Counted from the stretch's first letter, positions 1 to 16,984 are shown. The stretch: 32,000 nt of DNA from Mucisphaera calidilacus (GCF_007748075.1 NZ_CP036280.1:1170001-1202000); one strand, 5' to 3'. A program made the numbers and translations. The notes: generated by a model not told the origin, from the letters alone.

Positions 1-88
1 ACCTGTTTATGGCGTGCGTGGCATCAGAGACACAGCCCGAAATGGCTGTGGGCTGTAACCTGCTGCGAGAACTGGCGTAGAAAGCGAA

Positions 89-116
89 AACGCCGCCGAG
101 TTCTCTCGACGGCGTT
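89..116. terminator. Bidirectional intrinsic-terminator-like hairpin
   Basis: AACGCCGCCGAG (89-100), loop TTCT, CTCGACGGCGTT (105-116): a 12-position stem with one C/A mismatch. On the minus strand it is followed by TTTTCGCTTTC; on the plus strand by CTGCGTTT. It lies between an open frame entering from the left edge (frame 3, stop TAG 78-80) and the 3' end of tRNA-fMet. Confidence 0.5.
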
Positions 117-161
117 CTGCGTTTACCGTGGGGCCGGTGAGTTGTGCAACCGGCCGGTTAA

Positions 162-235
<74 letters not shown>

Positions 236-280
236 TCTGTGAACATCATGTTAGGGCCAAAAGCCTCCTAGGTCAATCGC

Positions 281-3200
281 TCACGCGTTCTCCACAGCCG
301 TCGCCGCAGCCATATGCTTGAGCGCCGCCGTACGCTGGCGAACCTGCTCCTCCGTCGCCTCAACCACACGCTGGAAACGCTCCGGATCGCTCTTCTTCAT
401 GATCCGGAAACGAGCCTCCGAATTCATGTAATCCGACACCGTCGTCTTGCCCTTAGGCATGTCCACCTGCAACGGGTTCTTGCCCTCATCCGACCGACGC
501 GGGTCAAACCGATACAAAGGCCACACGCCCGCCGACACCGCCAGCTTCTGGTGGTTCAGGCCGTCCTTCAGGTCATAACCGTGAGCGATGCAGTGGGCAT
601 ATGCCACCACCAGCGACGGCCCGTCATAAGACTCCGCCTCCTGGATCACCTTCACCGCGTGGTTGTCATTCGCGCCCAACGCGATCGAACCCACATACGC
701 ATGACCATAGCTCATCGCGATCTGGCCCAGGTCCTTCTTGCCCGTCAGCTTCCCGGTCGTCGCGAAACGAGCCGCAGCGCCCAGAGGCGTCGCCTTCGAG
801 GCCTGGCCGCCCGTGTTCGAATACACCTCGGTGTCGAGCACCAGCATGTTCACGTTCCGGCTCTGTGCCAGCACGTGATCCAACCCGCCGAAACCGATGT
901 CATACGCCCAGCCGTCACCGCCGATGATCCACACCGACCGGTCAACCAGGTTCGCCAGCACCGTCGCCAGACGCTTCGCCGCCGGGTCCGATACCGATGC
1001 CAAAGTCTTGCGGATCGCGTCGATCGCCTCGTAGCGCTCCGAGATCGCCTTGTCGGGATCCTTCAGCACAGCGACCGCGGCCGCCGGCAGACTGCCCTCG
1101 AGACGGTCGAGCAGGGCGGCAGCCTCGCGCGCGTGCAGGTCCGCACCCAGACGCATGCCGTAGCCATACTCCGCGTTGTCCTCGAACAACGAGTTCGACC
1201 ACGCCGGGCCGCGACCACACGCGTCCGTCGTGTAAGGCGTCGTCGGCAGATTGCCGCCGAAGATCGAAGAACAACCCGTCGCATTCGCGATCAGCAGCCG
1301 ATCACCATACAACTGAGTCAACAGCTTGATGTAAGGCGTCTCACCACAACCCGAGCACGCACCACTGAACTCGAACAGCGGCTCGATCATCTGCGAGCCC
1401 TTCGCGTCCAGACGAACCACACGCTCACGCTGCATCTGCGGCAACCCGCGGAAGAAGTCGAAGCGGTCACGCTGACCATCAAGATCATCAAGACGCGGCT
1501 TCATCTCCAACGCACAACGGTCCGGGTTCTCACGGTCAATCGCCGGACAAACCTCAACACACAACTCGCAGCCCGTGCAGTCATCCGGTGCCACGCTCAG
1601 CGTGTAACGCTTGCCCTTGAAGTCCTTGCCCTTCGCATCGACCGCCACAAAGCCCTCGGGAGCGCCGGCCAGATCCGACTCGTCCACCAGCTTCATACGG
1701 ATCGCCGCGTGCGGGCACACCAGCGCACACTTGTTGCACTGGATACAAAGGTCCTCGTCCCACCGAGGCGTCTCCGTCGCGATGCCACGCTTCTCCCACT
1801 GCGACGTGCCCGTCGGCCACGTCCCGTCCACCGGGAACGCCGACACCGGCAGCAGATCGCCCTCGCCCGCAAGAATCTTCGCCGTGATCCGCTGCACGAA
1901 GTCCGGGGCCTCCTCGGGCACCGTCGGCGGCACTTCGTAACCCGCGTCCGCCGCCTCCGGTATCTCGACCTGGTGCAGGTTCGCGACCGCCGCATCCACC
2001 GCAGCGAAGTTCTTCTCCACGATCTCCTTGCCCTTGCGCGCATACGTCGTCTCGATCGCGTGCTTGATCCGCGCAATCGCCTCGTCGCTCGGCAGAACAC
2101 CCGAAATCGCAAAGAAACACGTCTGCATGATCGTGTTGATCCGCTGACCCATCCCCGCCTCACGCGCCACCGTCAACGCGTCAATCGTGTAGAAACGCAG
2201 CCGCTTCTCCCGAATCACCCTCTGCGCACGAGCCGGAAGATGATCCCAGACCTTGTCCGCCGGGTAAGGCGAGTTCAATAAAAACACGCCACACTCTCGC
2301 GCCGCGCCCAGAACATCAACCTGATCCAGAAACACCTGCTGGTGGCAGCCCACGAAATCCGCCTCCGAGATCAGGTACGGACTCCGGATCCGCTCCGGAC
2401 CAAAACGCAGGTGCGACACCGTCAACGCGCCCGACTTCTTCGAGTCATAAACAAAGTAGCCCTGAGCGTAGTTGTCCGTCTCCGTGCCGATGATCTTGAT
2501 CGAGTTCTTGTTCGCACCCACCGTGCCGTCCGAACCCAACCCGTAAAACAACGCACGGAAGCAGTCGTCCGACTCCACCGAGAAACTCGGGTCCCACTTC
2601 AACGACGTACGCGTCACGTCATCAACAATGCCGATCGTAAACCCGTGACGCGGACGATCCTCTCGAAGATGATCGAACACCGCCTTGGCCATCCCAGGCG
2701 TGAACTCCTTCGAAGACAGACCGTAACGACCGCCGACCACCATCGGCCGAGCCTCCAGACGACCCTCACGCTCCGCCGAATCCAACGCACCCACCACGTC
2801 TAGGTAAAGCGGCTCGCCCGGCGCACCCGGCTCCTTGCAACGGTCCAGAACCGCAACGCGACGCACACTCGTCGGCAACGCGGCCAGGAAATGATCCTGA
2901 CTCCACGGCCGATACAAACGCACATTCAGCACGCCGACCTTGCGACCCTCGCCACGCAGCTTCGCCGCCGTCTCCTCGAGCGTCTCAACACCCGACCCCA
3001 TCGCCACCACAACGTCCTCCGCGTCCGGATCACCCACGTACTCAAACAACTGATACGCACGACCCGTCGCCTTCTCCAGACGCGCGAACGTCCGCTCAAC
3101 AATCTCCGGCACCGCCTCGTAATACGCGTTCGCCGCCTCGCGGCACTGGAAAAACACGTCCGGGTTCTGCGCCGTCCCACGAATCGAAGGCGTGTCCGGG

Positions 3201-3865
3201 TCCAGACGACGTCCGCGGAAATCAAGAATCGACTCGTCACTCACCAGCGTCCGCAACGCGTCATCACTCATCACCTCAATACGCGAGACCTCGTGCGACG
3301 TGCGGAAGCCATCCATGAAGTGCAGAAACGGAATCCGGCTCTCAAGCGTCGCCGCGTGAGCCACCGCCGCCATGTCGTGCGCCTCCTGAACCGAGCACGA
3401 CGCCAACATCGCAAAACCCGTCCCGCGACACGACATCACGTCCGAGTGATCACCAAAAATCGACAACGCGTGCGTCGCCAGCGTACGCGCCGCGACGTGC
3501 ATCACGAACGGATGCAACTCGCCCGCGATCTTGTACATGTTCGGAATCATCAGCAGCAGACCCTGCGACGCCGTGAACGTCGTCGTCAGCGTCCCCGCCT
3601 GCAAGCCGCCATGCACCGCACCCGCGGCCCCCGCCTCCGACTGCATCTCAACCGCCTGCGGAATCATCCCCCACAGATTCGTCCGGTCCTGCGTCGACCA
3701 CTCCTCGTAAAACTCACCCATAGGCGACGAGGGCGTGATCGGATAGATCGCCGCGAGCTCCGTCAGGCGATAAGCCACCGAAGCCACCGCCTCATTACCG
3801 TCCATCGTCTTCCATTGAACCGGTGCCACCGCCTCGGAAGCGGGAGTCTGGGCTGGCTGGATCAT
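281..3865 (-). CDS. nifJ: Pyruvate:ferredoxin (flavodoxin) oxidoreductase, fused NifJ/PFOR type
   Basis: Single polypeptide of about 1194 aa. It has two 4Fe-4S ferredoxin motifs (CIQCNKCALVCP, CTGCELCVEVCP) and a TPP-binding GGDGWAYDIGFGGLDH motif, and is colinear with PFOR throughout. The track ORF begins at GTG 3898. I prefer ATG 3865 (MIQPAQT...) because AGGAG lies 6 nt upstream of it. Confidence 0.93.
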   Translation of the reverse strand: MIQPAQTPASEAVAPVQWKTMDGNEAVASVAYRLTELAAIYPITPSSPMGEFYEEWSTQDRTNLWGMIPQAVEMQSEAGAAGAVHGGLQAGTLTTTFTASQGLLLMIPNMYKIAGELHPFVMHVAARTLATHALSIFGDHSDVMSCRGTGFAMLASCSVQEAHDMAAVAHAATLESRIPFLHFMDGFRTSHEVSRIEVMSDDALRTLVSDESILDFRGRRLDPDTPSIRGTAQNPDVFFQCREAANAYYEAVPEIVERTFARLEKATGRAYQLFEYVGDPDAEDVVVAMGSGVETLEETAAKLRGEGRKVGVLNVRLYRPWSQDHFLAALPTSVRRVAVLDRCKEPGAPGEPLYLDVVGALDSAEREGRLEARPMVVGGRYGLSSKEFTPGMAKAVFDHLREDRPRHGFTIGIVDDVTRTSLKWDPSFSVESDDCFRALFYGLGSDGTVGANKNSIKIIGTETDNYAQGYFVYDSKKSGALTVSHLRFGPERIRSPYLISEADFVGCHQQVFLDQVDVLGAARECGVFLLNSPYPADKVWDHLPARAQRVIREKRLRFYTIDALTVAREAGMGQRINTIMQTCFFAISGVLPSDEAIARIKHAIETTYARKGKEIVEKNFAAVDAAVANLHQVEIPEAADAGYEVPPTVPEEAPDFVQRITAKILAGEGDLLPVSAFPVDGTWPTGTSQWEKRGIATETPRWDEDLCIQCNKCALVCPHAAIRMKLVDESDLAGAPEGFVAVDAKGKDFKGKRYTLSVAPDDCTGCELCVEVCPAIDRENPDRCALEMKPRLDDLDGQRDRFDFFRGLPQMQRERVVRLDAKGSQMIEPLFEFSGACSGCGETPYIKLLTQLYGDRLLIANATGCSSIFGGNLPTTPYTTDACGRGPAWSNSLFEDNAEYGYGMRLGADLHAREAAALLDRLEGSLPAAAVAVLKDPDKAISERYEAIDAIRKTLASVSDPAAKRLATVLANLVDRSVWIIGGDGWAYDIGFGGLDHVLAQSRNVNMLVLDTEVYSNTGGQASKATPLGAAARFATTGKLTGKKDLGQIAMSYGHAYVGSIALGANDNHAVKVIQEAESYDGPSLVVAYAHCIAHGYDLKDGLNHQKLAVSAGVWPLYRFDPRRSDEGKNPLQVDMPKGKTTVSDYMNSEARFRIMKKSDPERFQRVVEATEEQVRQRTAALKHMAAATAVENA

Positions 3866-4381
3866 AATCAACTCCTGAAATGAGATGCCGTGTATCACGC
3901 TGACTATAGCAGATCATCGGACACATTGATATTTAATTCTGCCCGCGATCCATTTAAACATGAATCATCGGCCGCCAACACCCCCAGGCTCCGCACGCCG
4001 ACCACGAAATCCCGTCCCCTCAAAAGGCACGCAAGTCATAAGATAATCAAAATCCCAACACCAACACACCCCGGAAACGTTCTTCTGCTATGCGCAATGC
4101 GTCATCCAACCGGAGGATGCCTGGTGTTGCCAATAGCCACAATATATTTATTAACAATCACTTATGCTGCACTCAAGGCATCGCCGGAGACGGTCGCCAG
4201 CCTACTCAAACGCGCCTGTGAATCACCCCGGCAGCAGGCCCCCTCAAGACTTCACCCACCCCCGGCAATTAGAGACAGCCCGCCACGTTATCCATAGGGC
4301 AACCCCGCCGATGACCGGCACGAGCCGATGTTCGCGTGGCGGTCGAATCGAAGCGGTCTTGAACCAGAAGCAGGAAATGCC

Positions 4382-5512
4382 ATGAGAATCCCGGGTGAAT
4401 CCAACTCACACAGACACGAGCGCGTCGCACCAACCTTGAACCACGCTCTGATCGCACTCGTGACACTGCTCTGCACCACTGCCTCGGTGGTGGCCCAGCA
4501 GTCTTAAGTCACGCACAAGGACATCGTCTTTGCCAACATCGACGGCCACGATCTGCTGCTTGACCTCTACCTGCCCACAGAAGGCAACCCCGACACGCCG
4601 GCACCCCTGGCGATATGGATCCATGGCGGCGGCTGGATGAGCGACCCCAACAACAGCGTGCCCATTCTGCCCCTACTCGATCACGGCTTCGCCATCGCTC
4701 GAATCGAATACCGTTTGACCACCGAGTCCGATCTCTTCAACTCGGTGCGATTCCCGGCACAGATACATGACGTAAAGGGGGCGGTCCGCTTCCTCCGCGC
4801 CAACGCCGAAAACTACAACATCGATCCGGAACGATTCGCCGCCGTCGGATCCTCCGCAGGCGGACACCTCGCAGCACTGCTGGGCGTCAGCGCGAATCAC
4901 CCGCAACTCGAAGGCAATACCGGTGGCAACCTCAATCAGCCATCCAACGTCCAAGCCGTCGTCGATCTCTTCGGGCCCTCCAACCTTCTCACCATGGGCG
5001 GGTGGCACGACCAGCCCGATTCACCCGAGTCACGCCTCATAGACTGGGATCTCGGTGACCTGAAACACAACCTCGAAAACCCGAATCCTCCCTACCCCCT
5101 GATCGCCACCATCACCCGCGACGCAAGTCCCGTCTACCACGTGGACCCCACAGACCCGCCATTCTTCATCGCTCATGGCACAGCCGACACCACCGTGCCC
5201 TACACCCAGAGCACCGAACTCAACGATGCCCTCGTCGCGGCTAACGTTCCCGTCGACTTCCACACCGTCAACGATGACCGACACACCATCATGGATATGC
5301 CTCTCGAAGCCGTGTTCGACTTCATCACCACAACCCTCGCGCCGCAGGCGCTCCCGATCCCAGCCGACGCCAACCTCGACGGCAAGGTCGACCTGCTCGA
5401 CCTCTCGATCCTCGCCTCCAACTTCGGCGTCACCGGCTCCATCCCCGAACCCGCCTCCGCCACGCTGATCAGCCTCGGACTCCTGGCCACCCGCCGCCGA
5501 CGTTCCGCCTGA
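4382..5512 (+). pseudogene. Secreted alpha/beta-hydrolase (esterase/lipase-like) with dockerin-like repeat and PEP-CTERM anchor, interrupted by an in-frame TAA
   Basis: ATG 4382 opens a typical Sec signal peptide (MRIPGESNSHRHERVAPTLNHALIALVTLLCTTASVVAQQS). TAA at 4505-4507 is in the same frame. Translation continues colinearly as VTHKDIVFANIDGHDLLLDLYLPTEGNPDTPAPLAIWIHGGGW (HGGG oxyanion-hole motif) into the track ORF 4637-5512. That ORF carries the GSSAGG nucleophile elbow, HGTADTTVP, a DANLDGKVDLLD dockerin/EF-hand-like loop, and a C-terminal PEP...LISLGLLATRRRRSA sorting signal. There is no ATG/GTG/TTG between 4508 and 4637. Confidence 0.7.
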
Positions 5513-5535
5513 TCCGACACCCCGACCCGGACAAC

Positions 5536-5574
5536 ACGACCCCCTCTCGGCACCCGCCGGGAGGGGGTCGTTTC
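5536..5574 (+). terminator. Intrinsic-terminator-like hairpin after the hydrolase gene
   Basis: ACGACCCCCTC (5536-5546) pairs perfectly with GAGGGGGTCGT (5561-5571), an 11-bp GC-rich stem with a 14-nt loop. It starts 24 nt after the TGA. The U-tract is short (TTTC), so this is only moderate support. Confidence 0.45.
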
Positions 5575-5678
5575 ATACCCGCTCACAATCCATCATCACC
5601 ATCAGACCGCAGCGCGCGCACATCAAATCGTCCAAAACATCCGGTCATTTTGTGCGCGCCACAGGCCCTTTTTGGACT

Positions 5679-5750
5679 CAAACCGAACCAAAACGACGCA
5701 AAACGGATCGAAACCGAAGCAAAACGCCCAAAAACGACCCAAAACGGACC
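5679..5750. repeat. Seven helically phased A-tracts / degenerate ~10.3-bp tandem repeat (consensus C-AAAACG-RNC)
   Basis: A-tracts start at 5680, 5690, 5700, 5711, 5721, 5730 and 5741 (spacings 10, 10, 11, 10, 9, 11). Each is followed by C(C)G: AAACCG, AAAACG, AAAACG, AAACCG, AAAACG, AAAAACG, AAAACG. The region is non-coding and very G- and T-poor on the + strand. Confidence 0.8.
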
Positions 5751-5849
5751 GTTCCCAATCACCCCCGAATCCAACACGTTTTTCACCCCAAAATCGCAGT
5801 GCGCACAAACACGACCATCAATAAACCATTATTTGTCAACAAGATACAA

Positions 5850-5923
5850 TGACCCCTACGGGATTCGAACCCGTGTCGCCAGGATGAAAACCTGGTGTCC
5901 TAGGCCAACTAGACGAAGGGGCC
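5850..5923 (-). tRNA. tRNA-Glu (anticodon TTC)
   Basis: The reverse complement reads GGCCCCU-UC-GUCU-AGUUGGCCUA-GGAC-A-CCAGG-UUUUCAU-CCUGG-CGAC-ACGGG-UUCGAAU-CCCGU-AGGGGUC-A, a 74-nt cloverleaf. CCA is not encoded. Confidence 0.9.
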
Positions 5924-5939
5924 ATCAGCCGAGCGAGGT

Positions 5940-5968
5940 AGTTTAGCGGTTCTATCCGACGCGTCCAA
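5940..5968 (-). promoter_or_regulatory. Possible sigma70-like promoter for tRNA-Glu
   Basis: The minus strand reads TTGGAC (5968-5963), a 17-nt spacer, then TAAACT (5945-5940). The -10 element ends 16 nt upstream of tRNA position 1. Matches to consensus are modest, and the promoter consensus of this lineage is unknown to me. Confidence 0.25.
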
Positions 5969-6084
5969 CTCCGCCTCAACAATCCTCAAAGCAGAGACTA
6001 ACCTGTTCCGATTCCTAGGGGTAAATCCGCGGTAATCCCGCCGTTATCGTCGATTCGTGTTCATCTTCGCCCGATGTTCAAACT

Positions 6085-9009
6085 ATGAGCCGCGGGTTCG
6101 TCATGCTGGGTCTTTTTGTTCTCGCGGCGCTCGCCGTGCTGGACGCCGTGCACATCCTTGGCGTCTTCCAGGCACACACCAGCCTGGACTGGCTGCATCT
6201 TCTGATTGAAATAATCCTCTTGGTGGGAATTGGTTACGTGATCCTGCGTCATGTCCGCAGCCGGGACCGGGAACTGCTGCGACGGCTCGACGAGCAGAAC
6301 GAGCAAGCCTCACTCGCCACCCAGGCCGCCAGCATGGGCGCCTGGCGCTGGGAGATCCAGAGCGACCGGCTGATTCTCGACGAGGCGTGCAGCGAGCAAC
6401 TGACGCTCTCATCAGGGATTACGCACCGTTTGTCGGACTGGTTCCATCGCGTGCACAAGCTCGACCGCTACGCGATCGAGTCCTGCGTGCGCGAGGTCGC
6501 CCGGGGCGAGAAGGGCACGCTGCGGACCGAATACCGGATCGAGGACGGCGAGGGGAAGACGCGTTATCTCCTTTGCACAGCAACGGTTGAGCGTGGCGAA
6601 GATCAGAAGCCGCGCTACCTCGTGGGCATGAGCTGGGATATCACCCGGCTCAAGGAGACGGCGGAGGAGGCGGAACGCAGCCGGCAGCTGCTCCAGCAGG
6701 TGGGGATCATGGCGCGGATCGGCGGCTGGCGTCTTGATCTGAATCCGCTGCGGCCGGTCTGGTCGGAGATGGTCAAGGAGATTCACGAAGTCTCGCCTGA
6801 CTACGAGCCGACGCTCGAGAACGCGTTGAAGTTTTATGCACCTGAGGCGCGTGCGATCGTTCAGAACGCGGTGGACCGCGCGATCGAAACGGGCGAGCCG
6901 TGGGACATCGAGGTGCCGATGATCACGGCGCGGGGCCGCCGGATCCAGGTGCGTGCGTTCGGGATGCCTCAGTACCGGGACGGCGTGTGTGTCTGTCTGA
7001 TCGGTGCGTTGCAGGACATCACGGAGCGTCATGAGGCGACGCGTGCGTTGGAGCAGAGCGAGCAGCGTCTGGACCTCGCGATGACGGTTTCGAAGCAGGG
7101 GCACTGGGACTGGGCGGTCGGTTCGGAGGAGGCGTATTTCAGCGCTTCGCTGCTGCGTGTTCTGGGTTACGAGCCAGATTCGCTGCCTCAGTCCTTCGGG
7201 ACGTGGGAGCGACTGCTTCACCCGCTGGATCGTGACGGGGTTCTGTCGTGTCTTCGTCAGGAGTCGGAGGATGCCCGCGACCGTTTTGTGCTCGAGATGC
7301 GGATGCGTAACCGCCGTGGTCAGTGGCAGTGGGTTCGGACGATCGGTTCGGTCGTGGAGCGTGACGCGGATGGCGAGGCGGCTCGTCTGGTTGGTGTGAT
7401 GGTGGACATCGACGAGCAGAAGCGGATGACGCACGATCTGGCGGTGGTCCAGCAGCGGCTGCAGCATTTCGTGGACAACACGCCGGCGGCGGTAGCGATG
7501 TTCGACCGGGACATGAATTACCTGATGGCGAGTCAGGGCTGGTATGAGCAGAACGACTTGCGGGGTCAGTCGATCATCGGGCGTTCGTACTACGACGTGA
7601 TGACTGACGTTCCCGAGCACTGGCGTGAGGCGCACCGGCGGTCGCTGGCGGGCGAGACGTTTGAGATGGACCGCGACTGCCTGGACACGGGTGACGGGCG
7701 GCTGCTGTGGATCAGCTGGCGTGTCCAGCCGTGGCGTGACACGTCGGGCGAGATCGGCGGCGTGATGGTGGTGACGGAGGTCGTGAACGAGCAGGTGGAG
7801 CACGAGCTGGAGCTTGCGGCGGCGTGCGAGGCGGCGGAGGCGGCGAACAAGGCGAAGAGCGAGTTCCTGGCGAACATGAGTCACGAGATCCGCACGCCTA
7901 TGACGGCGATTCTGGGTTTCACGGACCTGCTTGCGGAGGATGCTGAGCTGGATTCTGCGGCGGTTGGTGATGCGGTTGCGACGGTTCGTCGTAACGGCGA
8001 GCACCTGCTGTCGATCATCAACGATATTCTCGATCTGTCGAAGATCGAGGCGGGCAAGATGACGCTTGAGCGTCTGGACGTGAGTCCGCTGGCGGTGATC
8101 CGTGACGTGCACGAGCTGATGACGGTGCGTGCGCGTGAGAAGGGTTTGTCGCTGAGTTTCGATATCGAGACGGCGTTGCCCGAGACGATCCAGACGGACC
8201 CGACGCGGCTGCGGCAGGTGTTGGTGAACCTGGTGAGTAACGCGATCAAGTTCACGGAGTCGGGTTCGGTGGTGATGTCGGCGGCGTGGTCGGAGCAGAC
8301 GCCTGATCGGTTGTCGGTGGCGGTGCGAGACACGGGCATCGGCATGTCGCAGGTTCAGGTGGACCGGATCTTTGAGGCGTTCGCCCAGGCGGACGAGTCG
8401 ATGTCGCGTCGGTTTGGTGGTACGGGTCTGGGGCTGAAGATCTCGCGTCGTCTGGCGCACATACTGGGCGGTGATCTGACGGTGCACTCGGTGCCGGGCG
8501 TGGGGAGCACGTTCACGCTGACGATCGATACGGGGCCGATCAATCAGGGTTTGTCGGTGAAGCCGCCTGAGCCGGTGCGTGAGGCGGTGGGGGTTGCTGA
8601 GGCTCGCGTGCCGCTGGCGGGTGTGCGGGTTCTGCTGGCGGAGGATGGCGTGGACAATCAGCGTCTGGTCCGTTTCCACGTTGAGAAGGCTGGCGGGACG
8701 ATCGATGTTGCGGAGAACGGACGTCTGGCGCTGGAGGCGTGGGAGTCGGGTGGTCGCGAGGCTTATGACCTGATCATCATGGACATGCAGATGCCGGAGA
8801 TGGATGGGTATCAGGCGTCTCGTGCGTTGCGTGATCGCGGGTGGCGGGGGCCGATCATCGCGTTGACGGCGCACGCGATGTCGGATGATCGTCAGCGTTG
8901 CCTGGATGCCGGCTGTTCGGATTACGCGACGAAGCCGATCGATCGCGAGAAGCTTGTTGCGATCTGCGTGCGGGGCCTGGCCGAGTCGGACGACCGTCGG
9001 GCGGCCTGA
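6085..9009 (+). CDS. Hybrid sensor histidine kinase/response regulator (2 TM, about 4 PAS, HisKA, HATPase_c, REC)
   Basis: 974 aa. It has two N-terminal hydrophobic helices and four PAS/PAC-like repeats (e.g. GAWRWEI..., GGWRLDL..., GHWDWAV..., AVAMFDRDMNYL...). It has the H-box SHEIRTPM and the N/G1/G2 boxes (NLVSNAIKFT, DTGIGM, GGTGLGL). The C-terminal receiver carries DLIIMDMQMPEMDG and ATKP. Confidence 0.92.
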   Translation: MSRGFVMLGLFVLAALAVLDAVHILGVFQAHTSLDWLHLLIEIILLVGIGYVILRHVRSRDRELLRRLDEQNEQASLATQAASMGAWRWEIQSDRLILDEACSEQLTLSSGITHRLSDWFHRVHKLDRYAIESCVREVARGEKGTLRTEYRIEDGEGKTRYLLCTATVERGEDQKPRYLVGMSWDITRLKETAEEAERSRQLLQQVGIMARIGGWRLDLNPLRPVWSEMVKEIHEVSPDYEPTLENALKFYAPEARAIVQNAVDRAIETGEPWDIEVPMITARGRRIQVRAFGMPQYRDGVCVCLIGALQDITERHEATRALEQSEQRLDLAMTVSKQGHWDWAVGSEEAYFSASLLRVLGYEPDSLPQSFGTWERLLHPLDRDGVLSCLRQESEDARDRFVLEMRMRNRRGQWQWVRTIGSVVERDADGEAARLVGVMVDIDEQKRMTHDLAVVQQRLQHFVDNTPAAVAMFDRDMNYLMASQGWYEQNDLRGQSIIGRSYYDVMTDVPEHWREAHRRSLAGETFEMDRDCLDTGDGRLLWISWRVQPWRDTSGEIGGVMVVTEVVNEQVEHELELAAACEAAEAANKAKSEFLANMSHEIRTPMTAILGFTDLLAEDAELDSAAVGDAVATVRRNGEHLLSIINDILDLSKIEAGKMTLERLDVSPLAVIRDVHELMTVRAREKGLSLSFDIETALPETIQTDPTRLRQVLVNLVSNAIKFTESGSVVMSAAWSEQTPDRLSVAVRDTGIGMSQVQVDRIFEAFAQADESMSRRFGGTGLGLKISRRLAHILGGDLTVHSVPGVGSTFTLTIDTGPINQGLSVKPPEPVREAVGVAEARVPLAGVRVLLAEDGVDNQRLVRFHVEKAGGTIDVAENGRLALEAWESGGREAYDLIIMDMQMPEMDGYQASRALRDRGWRGPIIALTAHAMSDDRQRCLDAGCSDYATKPIDREKLVAICVRGLAESDDRRAA

Positions 9010-9014
9010 GTCGG

Positions 9015-10499
9015 TCAGGACTCGGGTTGTGAATCGGTGTTGTGTTGCTCGGGGGCGGTTTGGGTTTCAGGCTGTCGTGCGTGCTGGGCGGCTTCGTCGG
9101 CGAGGTCGACCCATCCCCCGCCGAAGGCTCGGTAGATGTCGATGAGGGATGCGTAGAGTTCAGCGTTGAGTCGGACCTGTTGGAGTTCGGCGTCGAAGAG
9201 GTCGCGTTCGGCGTCGAGGACTTCGACGTAGCTGACGTAGCCGTTGTCGTAGCGTTTCTGGGCGAGGGTGGCGTAGGTGCGGAGCGCGTCGACCTGTCGT
9301 GCCTGTGCGTTGGTTTCGTCGCGGGTGGTGCTGTGGGTGACGAGTGCGTTTTCGGATTCGAGCAGGGCGTTGAGCAGGGCGTTGTAGTAGGTGAAGAGGG
9401 CCTGCTGCTGGACGGCCTGTGCGGCGTCGACCTGCGACTCGATTCGGCCCGCGGTGAAGATGGGTCCGGCGGCCTGTGCGGCGAGCTGGTAGAGGATGGC
9501 GTCGCCGGTGGCGATGTTGGAGAGGTCGTCGCTTGCGATGCCGAGGACGCCTGTGAGTGAGATGGTGGGGAAGTAGGCGGATTCTGCGACGCCGATGGCG
9601 GCGTTGGCGGCGACGAGGTTCTGTTCGGCGGCGCGGATATCGGGTCGTCGTTCGAGGACCTGTGCGGGTAGTCCTTCGGGGACGGGCGGGAGGGCGAGTT
9701 TTTCGACGGAGGGTCCGCGGTCGATGTCGCCAGGCGGTCGTCCGAGGAGGATGGAGAGCGCGTTTTCGAGTCGTGCGATGTCGCGTTCGATGGCGGGGAT
9801 GGTGGCGGCGGTTCGTTCGTACTCGGAGCGGACCTGTGCGACCTCGAGCGCGGAGATCATGCCTTCGGCGCGTTGTCGCTCGAAGAGTTCGACGTTTTCG
9901 GCGCGTGATTCGAGGCGTTGTTCGGCGATGACGAGTTGGGTGTCGAGGCTTCGGATGGCGACGTAGGCGGTGGCGACGGAGGTGACGAGTGTGAGGATGA
10001 CGCCTCGGCGGTTTTCCTCGGCGGCCATGAGGTTGGCACGTGCGGCCTCGGTGGATCTTCGGATGCGTCCCCAGAGGTCGAGTTCCCATCCGACGGCGAC
10101 GTTGCCTGAGAAGAAGTCGCTGTTGCGGTCAAAGCCGGGTGTTCGTGCGGCGTCGCTGGTTTCGCGTGAGAGCTGCTGGGTGCCTGCTTCGAGCCCGTAG
10201 CCGACCTGCGGGAAGGCCTCGGATCGTGTGATGCCGAGTCTTGCGGCGAACTCCTCGACGCGGAGTGTGGCGATGGTGAGGTCGTGGTTGTTGGCGAGCG
10301 CTTCGTCGATGAGTGCTTCGAGCGCGGGGTCGCCAAACTGCGCCCACCACTCGAGATCGGTGCTGCCGAGCGTTTCGGAGGCGTCCCGTTCGCGCCATGT
10401 TTCGGGCGGTGTGGTTTCGGGTTTTTCGTAGTCGGGGCCGACGGTGCAGGCGGGCAGGAGGAGGGCGGCGGCGATCAGCGGGAGGACGTGCTTATGCAT
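9015..10499 (-). CDS. RND efflux outer-membrane factor lipoprotein (NodT/OprM family), system 1
   Basis: 494 aa. The signal peptide has the lipobox LLPAC followed by TVGPDY, typical of NodT-family OMFs, and the two-repeat TolC-like helical architecture is present. Its ATG (10499) overlaps the upstream RND stop by 8 nt (ATGCATAA). Confidence 0.9.
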   Translation of the reverse strand: MHKHVLPLIAAALLLPACTVGPDYEKPETTPPETWRERDASETLGSTDLEWWAQFGDPALEALIDEALANNHDLTIATLRVEEFAARLGITRSEAFPQVGYGLEAGTQQLSRETSDAARTPGFDRNSDFFSGNVAVGWELDLWGRIRRSTEAARANLMAAEENRRGVILTLVTSVATAYVAIRSLDTQLVIAEQRLESRAENVELFERQRAEGMISALEVAQVRSEYERTAATIPAIERDIARLENALSILLGRPPGDIDRGPSVEKLALPPVPEGLPAQVLERRPDIRAAEQNLVAANAAIGVAESAYFPTISLTGVLGIASDDLSNIATGDAILYQLAAQAAGPIFTAGRIESQVDAAQAVQQQALFTYYNALLNALLESENALVTHSTTRDETNAQARQVDALRTYATLAQKRYDNGYVSYVEVLDAERDLFDAELQQVRLNAELYASLIDIYRAFGGGWVDLADEAAQHARQPETQTAPEQHNTDSQPES

Positions 10500-13400
10500 G
10501 GTCTTGTTCTCCGCTGGCGGCCGCGGGTGCGGGTGCAGCTTGCGGCGGCTTCTGTCCGCGTGAGGTGGCTGAGACGATGAGGTAGTAGAAGAGGGGGACG
10601 AAGAAGAGTGCGAGGGTGGTGGCGGAGATCATGCCGCCGATGATGCCGGTGCCGATGGAGTGTCGTGCGGCGGAGCCGGCTCCGCTGGCGGTGACGAGGG
10701 GGAGTGCTCCGAGGATGAAGGAGAGTGAGGTCATGAGGATGGGGCGGAGTCGGAGTCGTGCGGCCTCGACGGCGGCGTCGAAGGGTGAGAGGCCTTCGCT
10801 GTGCTTAACCTGTGCGAACTCGACGATGAGGATGGCGTTTTTGGTGGAGAGCCCGATGAGGGTGACGAGCCCGACCTGGAAGTAGATATCGTTTTCCATG
10901 CCACGGAGGAAGACGGCGACGAGGGCCCCGAAGATGCCGAAGGGGACGGCGGTGATGATGGCGAGGGGCAGTGACCATCGCTCGTACTGTCCGGCGAGGA
11001 TGAGGAAGACCATGATGATGCCGAAGACGAAGGCGATGGCGGAGGTGGATCCGGCTTTCTTTTCTTCGAAGGCCTGTCCGGACCATGCGAAGGAGAAGGT
11101 GTCGGGGAGGACTTCGCGTCCGAGTTCTTCCATGGCGTTGATGGCCTGTCCGGAGGAGAATCCGGGTGAGGCGTCGCCTGTGACCTTGGCGGCGGGGAAG
11201 CCGTTGAATCGAGCGACGAGGTCGGGTCCGGCGCGGTAGTCGGCGGAGACGACGGAGGAGAGTGGGAGCATGGCTCCGCTTCGCTGCCGGACGAAGATGT
11301 TCTGGATGTCGGTGGGGTTGTCGCGGTATTCGGCGTCGGCCTGGAGGACGACGTTCCAGACGCGGCCGTACTTGTTGTACTGGCTGACGTAGACGGAGCC
11401 GAAGAGAGACTGGAGCGCGTCGTAGACGCCGTCGACGGGCATGCCGAGGGTTTCGGCCTGGGTCCGGTCGACGCTGACGAGGAGCTGGCGGGTGAAGGCG
11501 TTGTAGGTGGAGTTGACGCGTGTGAGTATGGGTTCTTCGGCGGAGGCGTTGATGAACTCGCGTGTTTCGGTGAAGAGCTGGATGGGGTCGTCGTTGCCAC
11601 GGTTCTGGATCCAGAACTCGAAGCCGCCCTGGGTTCCGAGTCCGGGGATGGAGGGCGGGTTGATGGGTATGACGACGCCGTCGCGTATGGCTTTGAGTTT
11701 GGGGATGGTCTGGGCGAAGACGGCGTTGATGGAGAGTGCGGGGTCTTTTCGCAGGTTGAAGTCGTCGAGTTCGACAAAGATGGTTCCGGCGTTGGTCTTG
11801 AGCTGGCTGTCCAGGAGCGAGTATCCGGAGATGGCGGAGGCGCGGACCACGGCGGGGTGTTCGAGGAAGAGTTCGGCGGCTCTTGAGGTGGAGGCTTCGG
11901 TGCGGTCCATGCTGGCGCCGTCGGGCATGATGACGGCGACGATGAAGAAGCCCTGGTCTTCAACGGGGACGAAGCTGGAGGGGACGGTCCGGAAAAGGGT
12001 GTAGATGCCGGCGAGCATGGCGAGGACGACGATGATGGCGACGGGCGCTGCCTTGACGGTCCAGCGGACGCCGACGCCATAGACGTCGGTGGTTCGGTCG
12101 ATGAAGGCGTTGAAGGCCTTGAAGATGGCGGGGACGGTTCCGCGGGGTTTGAGGAGCATGCCGCAGAGTGCGGGGGTGAGTGTGAGGGCGACGAAGGAGG
12201 AGATGGAGACGGAGACGGCGATGGTGATGGCGAACTGTTTGTAGAGGACGCCTGTGGTTCCGCCGAGGAAGGCGACGGGCAGGAAGACGGCGATGAGGAC
12301 GAGTGTGGTGGCGATGACGGGCCCGATGACCTCGCCCATGGCGAGGATGGTGGCTTTTTTGGCGTCGAGTCCGCGTTCGGCGATGTTTCGTTCGACGTTT
12401 TCGACGACGACGATGGCGTCGTCGCAGACGATGCCGATGGCGAGGACGAGTCCGAAGAGTGTGAGGAGGTTGAGGCTGAAGCCGAGGGCGAGCATGCCGA
12501 CGAAGGTGCCGATGATGGAGACGATGATGGCGAGTGTGGGGATGATGGTGGCGCGTACGCTCTGGAGGAAGATGTAGGTGACGAGGACGACGAGGATGAC
12601 GGCGATGATGAGTGTGGTGACGACCTCGTCGATGGAAGCCTGGACGACCTTGGTGGTGTCGTAGGTGACTCTGTAGTCGACGCCTGAGGGGAAGGCTTTT
12701 TTGAGCTCTTCCATCTGTGCCCGGACGTTGGCGGCGACCTGGAGCGCGTTGGATCCGGGCTGCTGGTAGACGGCGACGAAGGTTGAGGGCTGTCCGTTGA
12801 AGTTGGCTCGCATCAGGTACTGCTGCAGACCGACTTCGGCTCGCGCGACGTCGCCGACGCGGACAACGGCGGAGCCGTCGGACTCGGCGCGGACGATGAT
12901 GCTCTCGAACTCATCGGGTTCGTCGTATCGGCCTTCGGTGACGACGGGGATGGAGAGCTGGACGGGTGCGTTCATCGGTTCTGCGGCGACGGTGCCGGCG
13001 GAGAACTGCTGGTTTTGTCGGGAGACGGCGGAGGCGATGTCGCTGGGGGTGATCTGGAGGCTGGCCATGCGTTCGGGGTTGAGCCATATGCGCATGGCCT
13101 GGTCGGGCAGGCCCATGATGGAGGCCTGGTTGGCGCCCTCGACGCGTTTGAGGGCGTCAAGGACGTAGACGTTGGCGTAGTTGCTGATGTAGTTTTCGTC
13201 GAAGGAGTTGTCGGGGGAGTAGAGCGCGATGAGCATGAGGATGCTCGAGGATCGCTTTTCGACGGTGACGCCTATCTGGGTGACGGAGTCGGGCAGGCTG
13301 GACATCGCGCGGTTGACGCGGTTCTGGACCTGGACTTCGGCGGTGTCGGGGTCGGTTCCGAGGGCGAAGTAGGCGGTGAGGGTCATCTGCCCGTTGGCGG

Positions 13401-13650
13401 ATGATCGTGACTGCATGTAGAGCAGTGCGTCGGCGCCGTTGATCTCGGTTTCGAGGGGGGCGGCGACGGAGTTGGCGACGGTCTGTGCGTCGGCGCCGGG
13501 GTAGTTGGCGGAGACGGTGACCTGGACGGGGGTGATGTCGGGGTACTGGGTGATGGGGATAGCGGCGAGTGAGACGAAACCTCCGATCACGATGATGATC
13601 GAGAGGACGGATGCGAGGATGGGTCGGTTGACGAAGAGTGAGGTCAGCAT
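10492..13650 (-). CDS. RND multidrug efflux permease (HAE1, AcrB/MexB-like), system 1
   Basis: 1052 aa. The N-terminus FVNRPILASVLSIIIVIGG...ITQYPDITPVQVTVSANYPGADAQTV is colinear with AcrB. It has 12 predicted TM segments and two large periplasmic loops. Confidence 0.93.
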   Translation of the reverse strand: MLTSLFVNRPILASVLSIIIVIGGFVSLAAIPITQYPDITPVQVTVSANYPGADAQTVANSVAAPLETEINGADALLYMQSRSSANGQMTLTAYFALGTDPDTAEVQVQNRVNRAMSSLPDSVTQIGVTVEKRSSSILMLIALYSPDNSFDENYISNYANVYVLDALKRVEGANQASIMGLPDQAMRIWLNPERMASLQITPSDIASAVSRQNQQFSAGTVAAEPMNAPVQLSIPVVTEGRYDEPDEFESIIVRAESDGSAVVRVGDVARAEVGLQQYLMRANFNGQPSTFVAVYQQPGSNALQVAANVRAQMEELKKAFPSGVDYRVTYDTTKVVQASIDEVVTTLIIAVILVVLVTYIFLQSVRATIIPTLAIIVSIIGTFVGMLALGFSLNLLTLFGLVLAIGIVCDDAIVVVENVERNIAERGLDAKKATILAMGEVIGPVIATTLVLIAVFLPVAFLGGTTGVLYKQFAITIAVSVSISSFVALTLTPALCGMLLKPRGTVPAIFKAFNAFIDRTTDVYGVGVRWTVKAAPVAIIVVLAMLAGIYTLFRTVPSSFVPVEDQGFFIVAVIMPDGASMDRTEASTSRAAELFLEHPAVVRASAISGYSLLDSQLKTNAGTIFVELDDFNLRKDPALSINAVFAQTIPKLKAIRDGVVIPINPPSIPGLGTQGGFEFWIQNRGNDDPIQLFTETREFINASAEEPILTRVNSTYNAFTRQLLVSVDRTQAETLGMPVDGVYDALQSLFGSVYVSQYNKYGRVWNVVLQADAEYRDNPTDIQNIFVRQRSGAMLPLSSVVSADYRAGPDLVARFNGFPAAKVTGDASPGFSSGQAINAMEELGREVLPDTFSFAWSGQAFEEKKAGSTSAIAFVFGIIMVFLILAGQYERWSLPLAIITAVPFGIFGALVAVFLRGMENDIYFQVGLVTLIGLSTKNAILIVEFAQVKHSEGLSPFDAAVEAARLRLRPILMTSLSFILGALPLVTASGAGSAARHSIGTGIIGGMISATTLALFFVPLFYYLIVSATSRGQKPPQAAPAPAAASGEQDHA

Positions 13651-13653
13651 GGT

Positions 13654-14823
13654 TTACTCGATCGCTCCGTTTTCGGGATGATCGATGGGCACGAGGCTGA
13701 CGATGTTGACGGGTGTTCCGGGCGTGAGCCCGAGTGATCCGTTGACGATGACGCGGTCGCCGGCGTTGAGTCCCTGCTCGATGACCCAGTTGTCGTTGAC
13801 CCAGGGCCCGGTGACGACGGGACGTTGTTCGGCCTTGTTCTCGTCGTCGACGAGCCAGACGAAGGAGCCTCGGGGTCCCTGCTGGACGGCGCGTTTGGGT
13901 GCGAGGATGGCGTCGGGTCGGATGGCTCCGCTGGTGTAGACGCGGACGTACTGTCCGGGTCGGAGGGGTTCGGTGTCGACGTTGGGGATTTCGGCTCGGA
14001 CGAGGAAGGTGCCGGTCTGGTCGTCGACGGAGGCGTCGGCGAAGGAGATGTGTCCGGTGTTGGGGAAGAGGGTTCCGTCGGAGAGCTTGATGTTGACGGC
14101 GAAGCGTTTGTCTTCGGGGATGATCATGCTGCCCGAGACCTGAGCCTGTCGGCTGCGGAGGGCCTGTGCCTCGGAGACGCTGAACTCGACCCAGATGGGG
14201 TTGATGCGTGCGACGTAGGTGAGGGGTTCGGACCCGATGCCAAGGTAGGCGCCTTCGCGTTGTGTGGCGGAGCTGGTGAGTCCTTCGACGGGTGAGGTGA
14301 TGGTGGTGTATCCGAGGTCGAGTTCGGCCTCGAAGACGCGTGCCTTGGCGGCTTCGACGGCGGCGGCGGCCTCGCGGACGCTGCCCTGGGCGTCGTCGAG
14401 TTCTTTCTGGGCGACGGCTTCGATTTCGGCGAGGGGTTTGACGCGTCTGAGCAGTGCTTCGGCGTTTTCGAGTCGTGCTTCGAGCTGGGCGAGTTCGGCC
14501 TTAGCGGCGCGGAGTCGTGCTTCGAAGGGAGCGGGGTCGATTTTGAAGAGGACGTCGCCTTGCTTGACGCGTTTGCCTTCTTCATAGGCGACTTCGTCGA
14601 GGAAACCGGCGACGCGGGTGCGTATCTCGACGCGTTGTGAGCTCGCGGTTCGGCCGATGAACTCGAAGGAGACGGGCAGGTCGGCGGTCTCGATCTGTGC
14701 GACGTCGACGTCGCGTGGGGGGGGAGCGGGTGCCTGCTGCTGGTCGGATTCGGTGCAGGCGGAGAGCGTGGCGAGGATGGTGATCGCTGCCAGCGCGTTC
14801 AGAGCGTGTCTGAATGGAGCCAA
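13654..14823 (-). CDS. RND efflux periplasmic adaptor (membrane fusion protein) lipoprotein, system 1
   Basis: 389 aa. It has the lipobox LSAC, a coiled-coil hairpin (LRAAKAELAQLEARLENAEALL...) flanked by lipoyl/beta-barrel segments, and the GDVLFKIDP motif. The apparent start is TTG, with GAAGGGA 11 nt upstream. Its stop lies 3 nt before the RND start. Confidence 0.88.
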   Translation of the reverse strand: MAPFRHALNALAAITILATLSACTESDQQQAPAPPPRDVDVAQIETADLPVSFEFIGRTASSQRVEIRTRVAGFLDEVAYEEGKRVKQGDVLFKIDPAPFEARLRAAKAELAQLEARLENAEALLRRVKPLAEIEAVAQKELDDAQGSVREAAAAVEAAKARVFEAELDLGYTTITSPVEGLTSSATQREGAYLGIGSEPLTYVARINPIWVEFSVSEAQALRSRQAQVSGSMIIPEDKRFAVNIKLSDGTLFPNTGHISFADASVDDQTGTFLVRAEIPNVDTEPLRPGQYVRVYTSGAIRPDAILAPKRAVQQGPRGSFVWLVDDENKAEQRPVVTGPWVNDNWVIEQGLNAGDRVIVNGSLGLTPGTPVNIVSLVPIDHPENGAIE

Positions 14824-16969: not shown

Positions 16970-16984
16970 TATTGACGGCATGTT

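Follow-up and report, generated by a model that had tools for sequence, protein, structure and literature searches.

A positional GC-skew switch beside tRNA-Glu in Mucisphaera calidilacus: a candidate chromosomal replication origin region

Introduction

Does an abrupt reversal of strand composition mark a place at which replication forks diverge, or one at which DNA has been rearranged? Bacterial oriC is located by the cumulative GC-skew minimum, and some origins are not adjacent to dnaA; oriC of E. coli lies beside gidA/mioC, and Cori of Caulobacter beside hemE. An excess of G and T on one strand is the standard signature of the leading strand. Inversions and misassemblies are known to produce skew discontinuities as well (SkewIT, PMC7717575; SkewDB 'anomalies', PMC8941118). 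The question is raised here by a 32,000-nt stretch of DNA (the window, from whose first nucleotide all coordinates are counted) of Mucisphaera calidilacus Pan265 (Planctomycetota, Phycisphaerae; GenBank CP036280), for which an initial annotation had proposed either a replication origin without dnaA or a rearrangement breakpoint near 6 kb.

Results

Plus-strand GC skew in 1-kb windows ranged from -0.14 to -0.32 over positions 1-6000 and from +0.06 to +0.41 over 6500-32000, with means of -0.219 (1-5900) and +0.232 (6500-32000). The cumulative G-C count reached its minimum at 6219 and was flat (≤15 counts) across 5859-6588; the cumulative A-T maximum and the keto minimum were found at 6001 and 6003, respectively. 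AT skew changed sign together with GC skew, with A>T to the left of the switch and T>A to the right, and the excess of G and that of T were thus on one and the same strand. The computed values (-0.22 to +0.23) agree with the sign change near 6 kb that had been claimed from approximate counts, with the A>T excess described just left of the switch and with the neutral zone at 5881-6480, in which 200-nt skews ran from -0.15 to +0.05.

Accordingly, the window can be divided into a C-rich, A-rich arm on the plus strand (1..5848; mean GC skew -0.22), a transition zone (5859..6588) in which the skew crosses zero somewhere from the tRNA-Glu/HK spacer to ~540 bp into the HK gene, and a G-rich, T-rich arm (6589..32000; mean GC skew +0.23). 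The left arm would be replicated by a leftward-moving fork and the right arm by a rightward-moving one. The former carries tRNA-Met (162-235, minus strand), the pyruvate:ferredoxin oxidoreductase (PFOR) gene, a 516-bp spacer and a probable hydrolase pseudogene; the latter carries HK, two RND efflux operons, a K+ channel, tRNA-Val, the fabF-to-rpmF operon and an SSF symporter. Within the HK gene, GC3 skew was -0.14, 0.00 and -0.02 across 6085-6624 and +0.29 and up thereafter. The transition is gradual over ~0.6 kb on this side, which counts against an origin.

The role of gene orientation was evaluated using plus-strand GC3 skew. In the left arm it was -0.38 for PFOR (minus strand) and -0.59 for the hydrolase (plus strand). 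In the right arm it was positive in all genes of both orientations, at +0.12 to +0.33 in plus-strand genes and +0.59 to +0.77 in minus-strand genes, with the doubtful ORF hyp443 (+0.25) as the exception among the latter. Decomposition gave a positional term of ~-0.45 for the left side and ~+0.43 for the right side, and a coding-strand term of ~-0.24, which corresponds to a preference for C-ending codons, indicating that gene orientation alters the size of the skew and not its sign. Moreover, the non-coding spacers have the sign of their side, both the three to the left (-0.22, -0.37 and -0.17) and the two to the right (+0.26 and +0.25). The independence from gene orientation described in the initial annotation therefore holds for genes and spacers alike, with only the magnitude depending on orientation. 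The composition flip near 6 kb is genuine, large, symmetric and positional; the switch is ordinary in kind, and the magnitude of the skew is unusual.

The switch is flanked by divergent genes. tRNA-Glu (UUC; 5849..5924, minus strand; ARAGORN; Rfam RF00005, 61 bits) and the HK gene (6085..9009, plus strand) are both transcribed away from it and are separated by a 160-bp spacer (5925..6084; skew -0.17). HK is a hybrid PAS histidine kinase/response regulator with Pfam matches to PAS_3, PAS_4, HisKA, HATPase_c and Response_reg, and is 100% identical to QDU71087.1/WP_145445225.1 of M. calidilacus. The spacer contains the tRNA promoter element AGTTTAGCGGT (5940-5950), an 11-mer kept in both MAG loci described below, and three tandem 11-bp units, GTAAATCCGCG/GTAATCCCGCC/GTTATCGTCGA (6021-6053), which are a reading by eye without statistics. 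PFOR (281..3865, minus strand; Pfam; identical to QDU71084.1) served as the comparative anchor gene, and its promoter element GACTATAGCAGATCATCGGA (3902-3921) is shared with a second Mucisphaera species.

On the other side of tRNA-Glu, a GC-rich hairpin followed by a T run (5536..5571, plus strand; inverted repeat I1, with 16-nt arms that are 94% complementary and a 4-nt loop) is probably the terminator of the hydrolase gene. The inverted repeat GCGCGCACA-N28-TGTGCGCGC (5614..5659; repeats I8 and I9) has a third copy, GCGCACAAA, at 5801-5809. GCGCACA/TGTGCGC occurs at seven sites in the whole window, three of which lie inside 5616-5807, and this repeat has no counterpart at the locus of the second Mucisphaera species. 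Seven helically phased A-tracts with CAAAACG-type units (5680..5750, plus strand) start at 5680, 5690, 5700, 5711, 5721, 5730 and 5741, 9-11 bp apart, and can be described as ~10.3 bp × 6.8 copies or 21 bp × 3.2 copies; five A4+ runs fall within 80 bp here, compared with 26 across all 32 kb. From this phasing we infer that the array is intrinsically bent. An AT-rich patch (5820..5849; 77% AT, given as 76% in the initial annotation) adjoins the 3' end of tRNA-Glu. It ranks second in AT content among the 30-mers of the window, is short and without neighbouring DnaA boxes, and is the only candidate unwinding element close to the switch. The spacer at 5513-5848 thus holds this patch, the phased A-tracts and the GCGCACA inverted repeat. 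The region 5513-6084 had been described as the only extended gene-poor stretch, holding tRNA-Glu, the AT patch and phased A-tracts. These elements are indeed found there, the A-tracts included; the claim of uniqueness failed, since a further 516 bp (3866-4381) are non-coding, and the hydrolase gene is probably a pseudogene.

The same gene junction was compared in related MAGs. One contig of MAG GCA_040222855.1 (L081) carries tRNA-Met, PFOR (minus strand) and, further on, tRNA-Glu (minus strand) and HK (plus strand). Its tRNA-Glu is identical to that of M. calidilacus at 77/77 nt, and PFOR is oriented the same way with respect to HK in both. The skew of this locus is uniform (+0.18 to +0.37) and the switch is absent; a sibling MAG (L084), in which an rve transposase lies beside tRNA-Glu, is in agreement. 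Between PFOR and tRNA-Glu there are seven genes in the MAG versus the pseudogene in M. calidilacus. As judged from gene order, the tRNA-Glu/HK junction is ancestral and not new. Because this junction carries no switch in the MAG, a change of sides without inversion, by the origin or by the PFOR block, would have to have occurred in one lineage. Such a change needs more than one simple event, which weighs against an origin.

The second Mucisphaera species was examined on a 3.25-Mb contig (locus L086), whose PFOR is 76% identical to that of M. calidilacus. A switch of the same polarity lies ~1 kb upstream of its Ysc84-PFOR-tRNA-Met block, with the cumulative minimum at L086:8895 (~2.992 Mb in the record). 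Genes diverge from the switch in both species, namely tRNA-Glu (minus)/HK (plus) in M. calidilacus and DUF533 (minus)/Ysc84 (plus) in Mucisphaera sp. The DUF4212-SSF-rpmF-plsX-fab-tRNA-Val block of the latter is located on the opposite side, ~44 kb off and pointing toward the switch; the fab block of the window has the same layout at 17-23 kb. The position of the switch is therefore kept in Mucisphaera sp., with PFOR and fab blocks flanking it, and the MAG lacks the switch at the tRNA-Glu/HK junction. The positional skew sign in Mucisphaera sp. is kept from -54 to -33 kb and from -9 to 0 kb on the fab side and, on the PFOR side, as far as +15 kb. Two features count against an origin: the skew on the fab side is weak (positional term ~-0.04 to -0.17), and the left arm is covered over only 6 kb in the window and 15 kb in Mucisphaera sp. 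Recombinase or integrase islands are present at tRNA-Met and tRNA-Val in Mucisphaera sp.; islands in the relatives have skew near 0 and lower GC.

PFOR also gave a measure of how fast strand composition turns over. Protein identity is 76-79% in all three pairs among M. calidilacus, Mucisphaera sp. and the MAG. In both Mucisphaera species G predominates over C on its coding strand (four-fold sites G.64/C.16 and G.62/C.13, respectively), and in the MAG C predominates over G (G.06/C.81). Opposite four-fold sites at ~76% protein identity indicate that skew re-equilibrates faster than these lineages diverge. Furthermore, an inversion leaves the coding-strand composition of a gene as it is; given the difference in PFOR, this gene has therefore been replicated for a long time in the direction proposed here, and its composition has come to equilibrium with its present direction of replication.

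Known origin elements were then searched for, a DnaA-box cluster being taken as at least three close matches within a few hundred bp. Five sites with at most one mismatch to TTATCCACA are present in the window, none of them within 4300-7700. When up to two mismatches were allowed, three sites lay within 1 kb of the M. calidilacus switch (2.6 expected) and two within 1 kb of that in Mucisphaera sp. (3.0 expected), numbers in line with chance, and box variants used in other phyla formed no cluster either. The search, with mismatches and variants, agrees with the absence of a cluster of TTATCCACA-like boxes recorded in the initial annotation. No dnaA, dnaN, gyrB, parAB or rpmH, likewise recorded as missing, and no gidA or hemE was found among the genes of the window, and no parS with at most two mismatches was found. 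The switches of the two Mucisphaera species have no non-coding sequence or 7-8-mer in common, and their spacers are small (160 bp in M. calidilacus and 99 bp in Mucisphaera sp.), which also counts against an origin. The origin reading is weakened by the lack of recognisable DnaA boxes, dnaA, parS and a conserved non-coding element.

Discussion

We favour, with a probability of roughly 0.58, the interpretation that the switch is the chromosomal replication origin region of M. calidilacus, centred at ~6.0-6.6 kb between tRNA-Glu and the 5' part of HK. The locus would be a long-standing boundary between DNA stretches replicated in opposite directions. By the usual rule the leading strand is G- and T-rich, and a change from C-rich to G-rich would mark diverging forks; that the forks start at the switch itself is a further step suggested by the composition. 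The origin proper may rely on diverged or low-affinity DnaA sites, or may be seated in a nearby spacer (5513-5848 or 5925-6084). Of the two explanations offered by the initial annotation, the origin has gained support from the shared junction, the second species and the fast turnover, and the breakpoint is disfavoured.

The locus resembles bacterial oriC in its C-rich to G-rich polarity, divergent flanking genes and lack of an adjacent dnaA, in the AT-rich patch and presumably bent DNA of the spacer, and in a location relative to neighbouring gene blocks that is kept in a congener. Unlike oriC, the window has no DnaA-box cluster (even with two mismatches or phylum-specific variants), no parS and no origin-linked marker gene; the two species share no non-coding element, their spacers are very small, and the same junction has no switch in a related lineage. 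Iteron-type plasmid origins have direct repeats adjoining an AT-rich segment, and the array at 5680-5750 (21-bp × 3.2 or 10.3-bp × 6.8), with the AT-rich patch 70 bp away, is similar in this respect. However, no rep gene is nearby, similarity among the repeats is only ~69%, with phased A-tracts making up most of them, and the array has no similarity to any PLSDB plasmid and no counterpart in Mucisphaera sp.

An inversion or translocation breakpoint, at which one flank was recently turned and retains its old skew, with the true origin elsewhere, is unlikely. Such sites yield equally sharp flips of full magnitude on both sides (SkewIT, PMC7717575), and the window shares with the SkewIT/SkewDB anomalies a sharp local sign change and mobile elements near the equivalent sites of relatives (the rve transposase of the sibling MAG and the tRNA-Met and tRNA-Val islands of Mucisphaera sp.). 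The absence of origin hallmarks, the visibility of the left arm over 6 kb only and the remodelling of the DNA from PFOR to tRNA-Glu would also be accounted for. In contrast to those anomalies, the tRNA-Glu/HK junction is ancestral by comparison with the MAG, the orientation of PFOR to HK is unchanged, and the G-rich PFOR differs from that of the MAG beyond what an inversion can change. Moreover, polarity and layout recur in the second species at the same macro-position. Given the rapid turnover of skew, a rearrangement predating the species split would have decayed, and an old inversion does not explain opposite skews of full strength; a breakpoint would instead require the same boundary to have been rearranged twice, recently and independently. 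No paired switch of opposite sign was found in the window (1-32000, with a left flank of just 6 kb) or, in the sampled stretches of Mucisphaera sp., to +15 kb or -54 kb.

It is highly improbable that the switch is a replication terminus in a lineage with reversed polarity, that is, with a C-rich leading strand. A fork-meeting point that drifts without local rearrangement would account for a conserved junction both with and without a switch, for a transition that is gradual on one side, and for the missing DnaA boxes, dnaA and parS. To our knowledge, however, the leading strand has G>C in all bacteria studied. Under this rule a terminus is expected to run from positive to negative, and the observed change is the reverse; the excess of G and T on one strand is also the standard deamination signature. 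A terminus would make most nearby Mucisphaera genes co-directional, the count near both switches under standard polarity being ~18 co-directional versus 39 head-on. This argument is weak: gene-strand bias in Planctomycetes is ~50% (PMC11040001; PMC4613354, table value 0.502), so an excess of head-on genes is uninformative, and the initial caveat that most genes on the right would be head-on carries little weight. The fab operon and the PFOR block answer oppositely in the MAG and therefore offer no calibration of polarity. No match to E. coli, B. subtilis, actinobacterial or generic dif sequences (28-mers) was found at either switch, and the two switches have no 20-30-mer in common; as dif prediction has failed for Planctomycetes (PMC3025954), a missing dif match is uninformative.

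Still less to be expected is the edge of DNA that arrived by horizontal transfer and integrated at the 3' end of tRNA-Glu, with a foreign left flank carrying the skew of another replicon. The 3' end does face the C-rich flank, and the spacer there carries odd repeats and the pseudogene. However, the left flank is native in GC content, GC3 and skew magnitude, genuine islands of the relatives look different in skew and GC, and plasmid or phage-like similarity in the spacer is confined to the tRNA. The tRNA-associated junction suggested in the initial annotation is not borne out, as the repeats reported for 5400-6300 include no att-like second copy of the tRNA 3' end, and PFOR, like tRNA-Met, is a syntenic core gene in three lineages. 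Least probable of all is a wrongly oriented block in the CP036280 assembly: misassembled inversions do cause skew breaks (PMC7717575), but the junction is found again in an independent MAG contig, and polarity and layout are the same in the independently assembled second species.

Strand asymmetry and its sign change near 6 kb

In 1-kb windows, the plus-strand GC skew ranged from −0.14 to −0.32 in the first 6 kb of the window and from +0.06 to +0.41 in everything beyond 6.5 kb. The mean values were −0.219 (1-5900) and +0.232 (6500-32000), confirming the sign change that the initial annotation had placed near 6 kb. The AT skew flipped as well, in the opposite sense to the GC skew. The cumulative G−C curve reached its minimum at 6219 and stayed within 15 counts of it over 5859-6588, and the cumulative A−T maximum and the keto minimum were located at 6001 and 6003, respectively. 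At 200-nt resolution, 5900-6500 was near neutral, in agreement with the neutral zone estimated previously. The GC3 skew of the hybrid histidine kinase/response regulator gene (HK, 6085-9009, plus strand) was −0.14, 0.00, and −0.02 across 6085-6624 (G 68 : C 75) and at least +0.29 from 6625 on (G 101 : C 48 in the next 540 bp), and the spacer between tRNA-Glu and HK still showed a skew of −0.17. This profile and the spacer value together place the zero-crossing at ~6.0-6.6 kb. The transition is sharp on its left side and graded on its right side.

The relation of the skew to gene orientation was evaluated from third codon positions. To the left of the switch, the plus-strand GC3 skew was −0.38 in the minus-strand pyruvate:ferredoxin oxidoreductase gene (PFOR, 281-3865) and −0.59 in the plus-strand hydrolase gene. 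To the right, it was +0.12 to +0.33 in plus-strand genes, +0.59 to +0.77 in minus-strand genes, and +0.25 in the doubtful open reading frame hyp443; the skew signs of non-coding spacers matched those of the surrounding side. The flip had been described as independent of gene orientation, and this holds for its sign, as seen in the GC3 skew of genes on both strands, but not for its magnitude, which orientation alters. The GC3 skew could be split into a positional term (~−0.45 on the left and ~+0.43 on the right) and a coding-strand term of ~−0.24, indicating that C-ending codons are favoured over G-ending codons independently of replication. Because of this preference, genes on the inferred lagging strand have GC3 skews of −0.6 to −0.77, whereas those on the leading strand reach only +0.1 to +0.4.

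For a genome of 63% GC, the asymmetry between the strands is very strong. (G−C)/N was ~0.14 for the lineage and ~0.145 on the right arm, and GC3 skew rose to 0.77; when two related Phycisphaeraceae loci from metagenome-assembled genomes (MAGs; L081 and L084) and a further comparison locus (L095) were looked at alongside the window, the asymmetry of the related MAG was similar or stronger. The mean composition-bias score of Planctomycetes is 0.023 (PMC4613354), and SkewDB gives a "typical 2.5%" (PMC8941118).

Gene content of the window

The left part of the window contains, in order, tRNA-Met, PFOR, a 516-bp spacer, a BD-FAE hydrolase, tRNA-Glu (5849-5924, minus strand), and the hybrid PAS histidine kinase. 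The right part contains two RND efflux operons, a K+ channel, tRNA-Val, the fabF-acpP-fabG-fabD-fabH-plsX-rpmF operon, and an SSF symporter. HK and PFOR are 100% identical to the M. calidilacus proteins QDU71087.1 and QDU71084.1, respectively, and some of the other gene identities rest on orthologue annotations. Both proteins are encoded on a 3,486,541-bp contig, where the number of PFOR precedes that of HK and so gives the direction of the record; the switch falls between QDU71086 and QDU71087. No replication gene is present in the 32 kb, in agreement with the absence of dnaA, dnaN, gyrB, parAB, and rpmH noted initially. The Pan265 genome (GenBank CP036280) has 63.9% GC and 2,856 protein genes (PMC8882080). 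PFOR relatives are widespread, with at least 80 loci from many phyla found in a genome-collection scan at 56-63% identity.

Comparison with related loci

In the MAG GCA_040222855.1 (L081), PFOR (−) and tRNA-Glu (−) stand on a single contig with seven genes between them, followed by an HK (+) with 44% identity to the window HK. Its tRNA-Glu is identical to the window copy over 77/77 nt, and the promoter 11-mer is conserved; in the sibling MAG (L084), tRNA-Met follows PFOR too, as in the window. The MAG stretches compared include parts of contigs JAVKCD010000003.1 and JAVKCD010000025.1. The skew is single-signed across both MAG loci (+0.18 to +0.37 in the HK orientation). Since the tRNA-Glu–HK adjacency and the relative orientation of PFOR and HK are common to the MAG and the switch is not, the sign change does not lie on a new junction.

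The PFOR proteins of M. calidilacus, a second species (Mucisphaera sp.), and the MAG show pairwise identities of 0.76, 0.76, and 0.79. Four-fold sites of PFOR are G.64, C.16, T.18, and A.02 in M. calidilacus and G.62, C.13, T.23, and A.02 in Mucisphaera sp., compared with C.81, G.06, A.09, and T.04 in the MAG. An inversion leaves the coding-strand composition of a gene unchanged, so this contrast indicates that PFOR has long been replicated in opposite senses in the two groups. It also indicates that the skew equilibrates within this divergence, and with such fast turnover a rearrangement predating the Mucisphaera split could not have kept a full-strength "wrong" skew. At conserved four-fold-type residues, PFOR orthologues replicated in opposite directions have ~15% of third positions in common. 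Such orthologues differ almost completely at synonymous sites, which makes the lineage a natural system for replication-driven mutation bias; phylogenetic and codon-usage studies on these genomes should treat the asymmetry with caution.

In Mucisphaera sp. (3,251,998-bp contig; ENA ERZ26867466, ctg28227), PFOR is located at ~2.993-2.997 Mb, and the skew changes sign near position 8895 of the corresponding locus (L086; ~2.992 Mb in the contig), between DUF533 (−) and Ysc84 (+). Upstream, values of −0.07 to −0.25 extend for 8 kb, and the skew is +0.2 to +0.25 across Ysc84-PFOR and again past a neutral recombinase island. On the side away from PFOR, the DUF4212-SSF-rpmF-plsX-fab-tatA-tRNA-Val block (2.938-2.959 Mb) is ~44 kb distant from the switch and is transcribed toward it; the window has the same layout at a distance of 17-23 kb. 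The closest relative encountered was a PlsX of 83% identity on a 15-kb Logan contig. The positional skew at this block in Mucisphaera sp. had the expected sign and was weak (~−0.04 to −0.17). In the MAG, where the fab block sits on another contig, the coding strand is strongly G-rich (GC3 skew of +0.35 to +0.70 in most genes, lower in rpmF and acpP), indicating that no gene-specific bias lies behind the pattern.

Search for origin elements

With at most one mismatch, TTATCCACA occurred at 5 sites in the window versus 2.1 expected, and at none within 4300-7700, consistent with the earlier remark that the switch has no DnaA-box cluster. Within 1 kb of the switch, in both the window and the second species, TTATCCACA with up to two mismatches and the TTGTCCACA and TGATCCACA variants were at expectation, and cyanobacterial, epsilonproteobacterial, and Thermotoga-type DnaA boxes found no support either. 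No parS was found. Searches for dif and for de novo 6-8-mers common to both switches gave nothing beyond chance, and the two species' switch regions had no sequence element in common. The spacers at both switches are small; a 15-mer present in both (CAAAAYGACGCAAAA) was not significant (E = 0.55). Metagenome scans with the full-length tRNA-Glu pattern returned 0 matches, and the 7 contigs matched by its core pattern belong to unrelated organisms (low skew, 40-58% GC). No experimentally defined planctomycete replication origin was found in the literature, and we know of none.

The region between the hydrolase and HK begins with a hairpin at 5536-5571, probably the hydrolase terminator. It is followed at 5614-5659 by the inverted repeat GCGCGCACA-N28-TGTGCGCGC, of which another copy occurs at 5801, and at 5680-5750 by seven A-tracts at intervals of 9-11 bp. 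Next come a 30-bp stretch with 77% AT (5820-5849), tRNA-Glu, and a 160-bp spacer that holds a conserved tRNA promoter element. The AT patch and the A-tracts had already been pointed out in the initial annotation. Across 3800-6300, Rfam matched the tRNA alone, and a promoter/terminator scan detected no promoter-like site above chance. In a plasmid comparison of the repeat-bearing spacer, the tRNA was the sole match.

Interpretation of the switch

A lasting border between DNA replicated in opposite directions, found in two species at the same macro-position, is best explained as a true replication feature. As far as is known, leading strands universally carry more G than C, here together with more T than A, and under this rule the polarity of the switch is that of an origin. 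The best supported reading is that the switch marks the chromosomal replication origin region, to which we assign a probability of roughly 0.58. If so, one of the lineages has had its origin or its PFOR block move to the other side, with the block uninverted; as the three lineages are about equidistant, the ancestral side is not inferable. It is conceivable, and on balance rather doubtful, that an origin without a recognisable DnaA-box cluster, away from dnaA, changed sides relative to tRNA-Met-PFOR...tRNA-Glu–HK within one family, in a lineage whose strand asymmetry is strong enough to replace G with C at the majority of four-fold sites in an orthologous gene. If true, the combination would argue for an initiation site that is non-canonical or relocated and against a standard oriC.

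Under the standard polarity, co-directional and head-on transcription units numbered ~12 and 20 in the loci compared, and the corresponding genes ~18 and 39 in Mucisphaera. The median gene-strand bias of Planctomycetes is near 50% (PMC11040001; 0.502 in PMC4613354), and the head-on excess is therefore unremarkable. Head-on genes had been raised as a caveat to an origin; the excess carries little weight. Gene orientation was likewise set aside as support for a reversed polarity.

A rearrangement breakpoint, also proposed at the outset, would need two independent recent events at one boundary and is improbable: the junction is common to the MAG, the second species repeats the pattern, and skew turnover is fast. 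A terminus with reversed skew polarity is very improbable, as it requires a leading-strand polarity that, to our knowledge, has never been observed. It would nevertheless account for the missing origin motifs and, because fork-meeting points can drift, for a switch present in one lineage only at the same junction; the missing dif does not count against it, since attempts to predict dif in Planctomycetes were unsuccessful (PMC3025954). Neither a tRNA-integrated island, which is unlikely, nor a tRNA-associated junction is favoured, given the native composition and the syntenic core genes of the left flank. Misassembly is all but ruled out by independent contigs.

Every chromosome has an origin. 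The feature is ordinary in kind, in a phylum whose origins are uncharacterised; more unusual is that canonical origin motifs are absent and that the strands are so strongly asymmetric in this lineage. If the locus is the origin, it provides a precise target of 0.6-1 kb in Pan265 (DSM 100697), a strain that is in culture and completely sequenced, and an example of an origin without canonical DnaA boxes, whereas a mere local notch would be an ordinary finding.

Additional sequence features

The hydrolase (4382-5512) has a PEP-CTERM-like tail (…PEPASATLISLGLLATRRRRSA) and an in-frame TAA at 4505-4507, which splits a 41-codon signal-peptide-like start (ATG 4382) from the catalytic domain. Translated from 4508, it spans the full Pfam profile (positions 1-215), and it is probably a nonsense pseudogene or the result of a sequencing error. 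The idea that the hydrolase had inverted symmetrically about the origin was dropped, the two BD-FAE hydrolases being only 35% identical over 112 residues. Two long open reading frames, orf135 in the PFOR–hydrolase spacer (3890-4297) and hyp443 (15617-16948), have GC3 values of 0.50 and 0.49, respectively, versus 0.7-0.88 in their neighbours, and no Pfam match; hyp443 runs into the genes on either side and has AT-rich stretches (16271-16440). Both may be foreign or not real genes.

GCGCACA/TGTGCGC is clustered at 5614-5809, which holds 3/7 of its sites in the window. Two of them make up an inverted repeat (9-nt arms, 28-nt spacer), the third lies at a distance of 143 nt, and together they flank the A-tract array. 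The cluster, which has no counterpart in Mucisphaera sp., may represent a small RNA or the binding site of a regulator. Upstream of the HK start, three tandem 11-bp units (6021-6053; GTAAATCCGCG, GTAATCCCGCC, and GTTATCGTCGA) are probably HK regulatory elements, and related pieces (GGTAATCCAGCGTTA and TTATCGAATCGAT) occur in a different order in the equivalent spacer of the MAG (L081 9890-9960). The likeness of these units to weak DnaA sites (ATCC core) was judged by eye and is not significant. Between the two Mucisphaera species, clear non-coding conservation is confined to the PFOR promoter/leader element GACTATAGCAGATCATCGGA, at 3902-3921 in the window and 9894-9913 in L086.

Mobile elements in the relatives were placed at tRNA genes bounding conserved blocks. 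Mucisphaera sp. carries a serine-recombinase island at tRNA-Met (L086 13753-21000) and a tyrosine-integrase island at tRNA-Val (locus L094, 16095-21029), both with skew near 0 and lower GC, and an rve transposase adjoins tRNA-Glu in the sibling MAG (L084 1-551).
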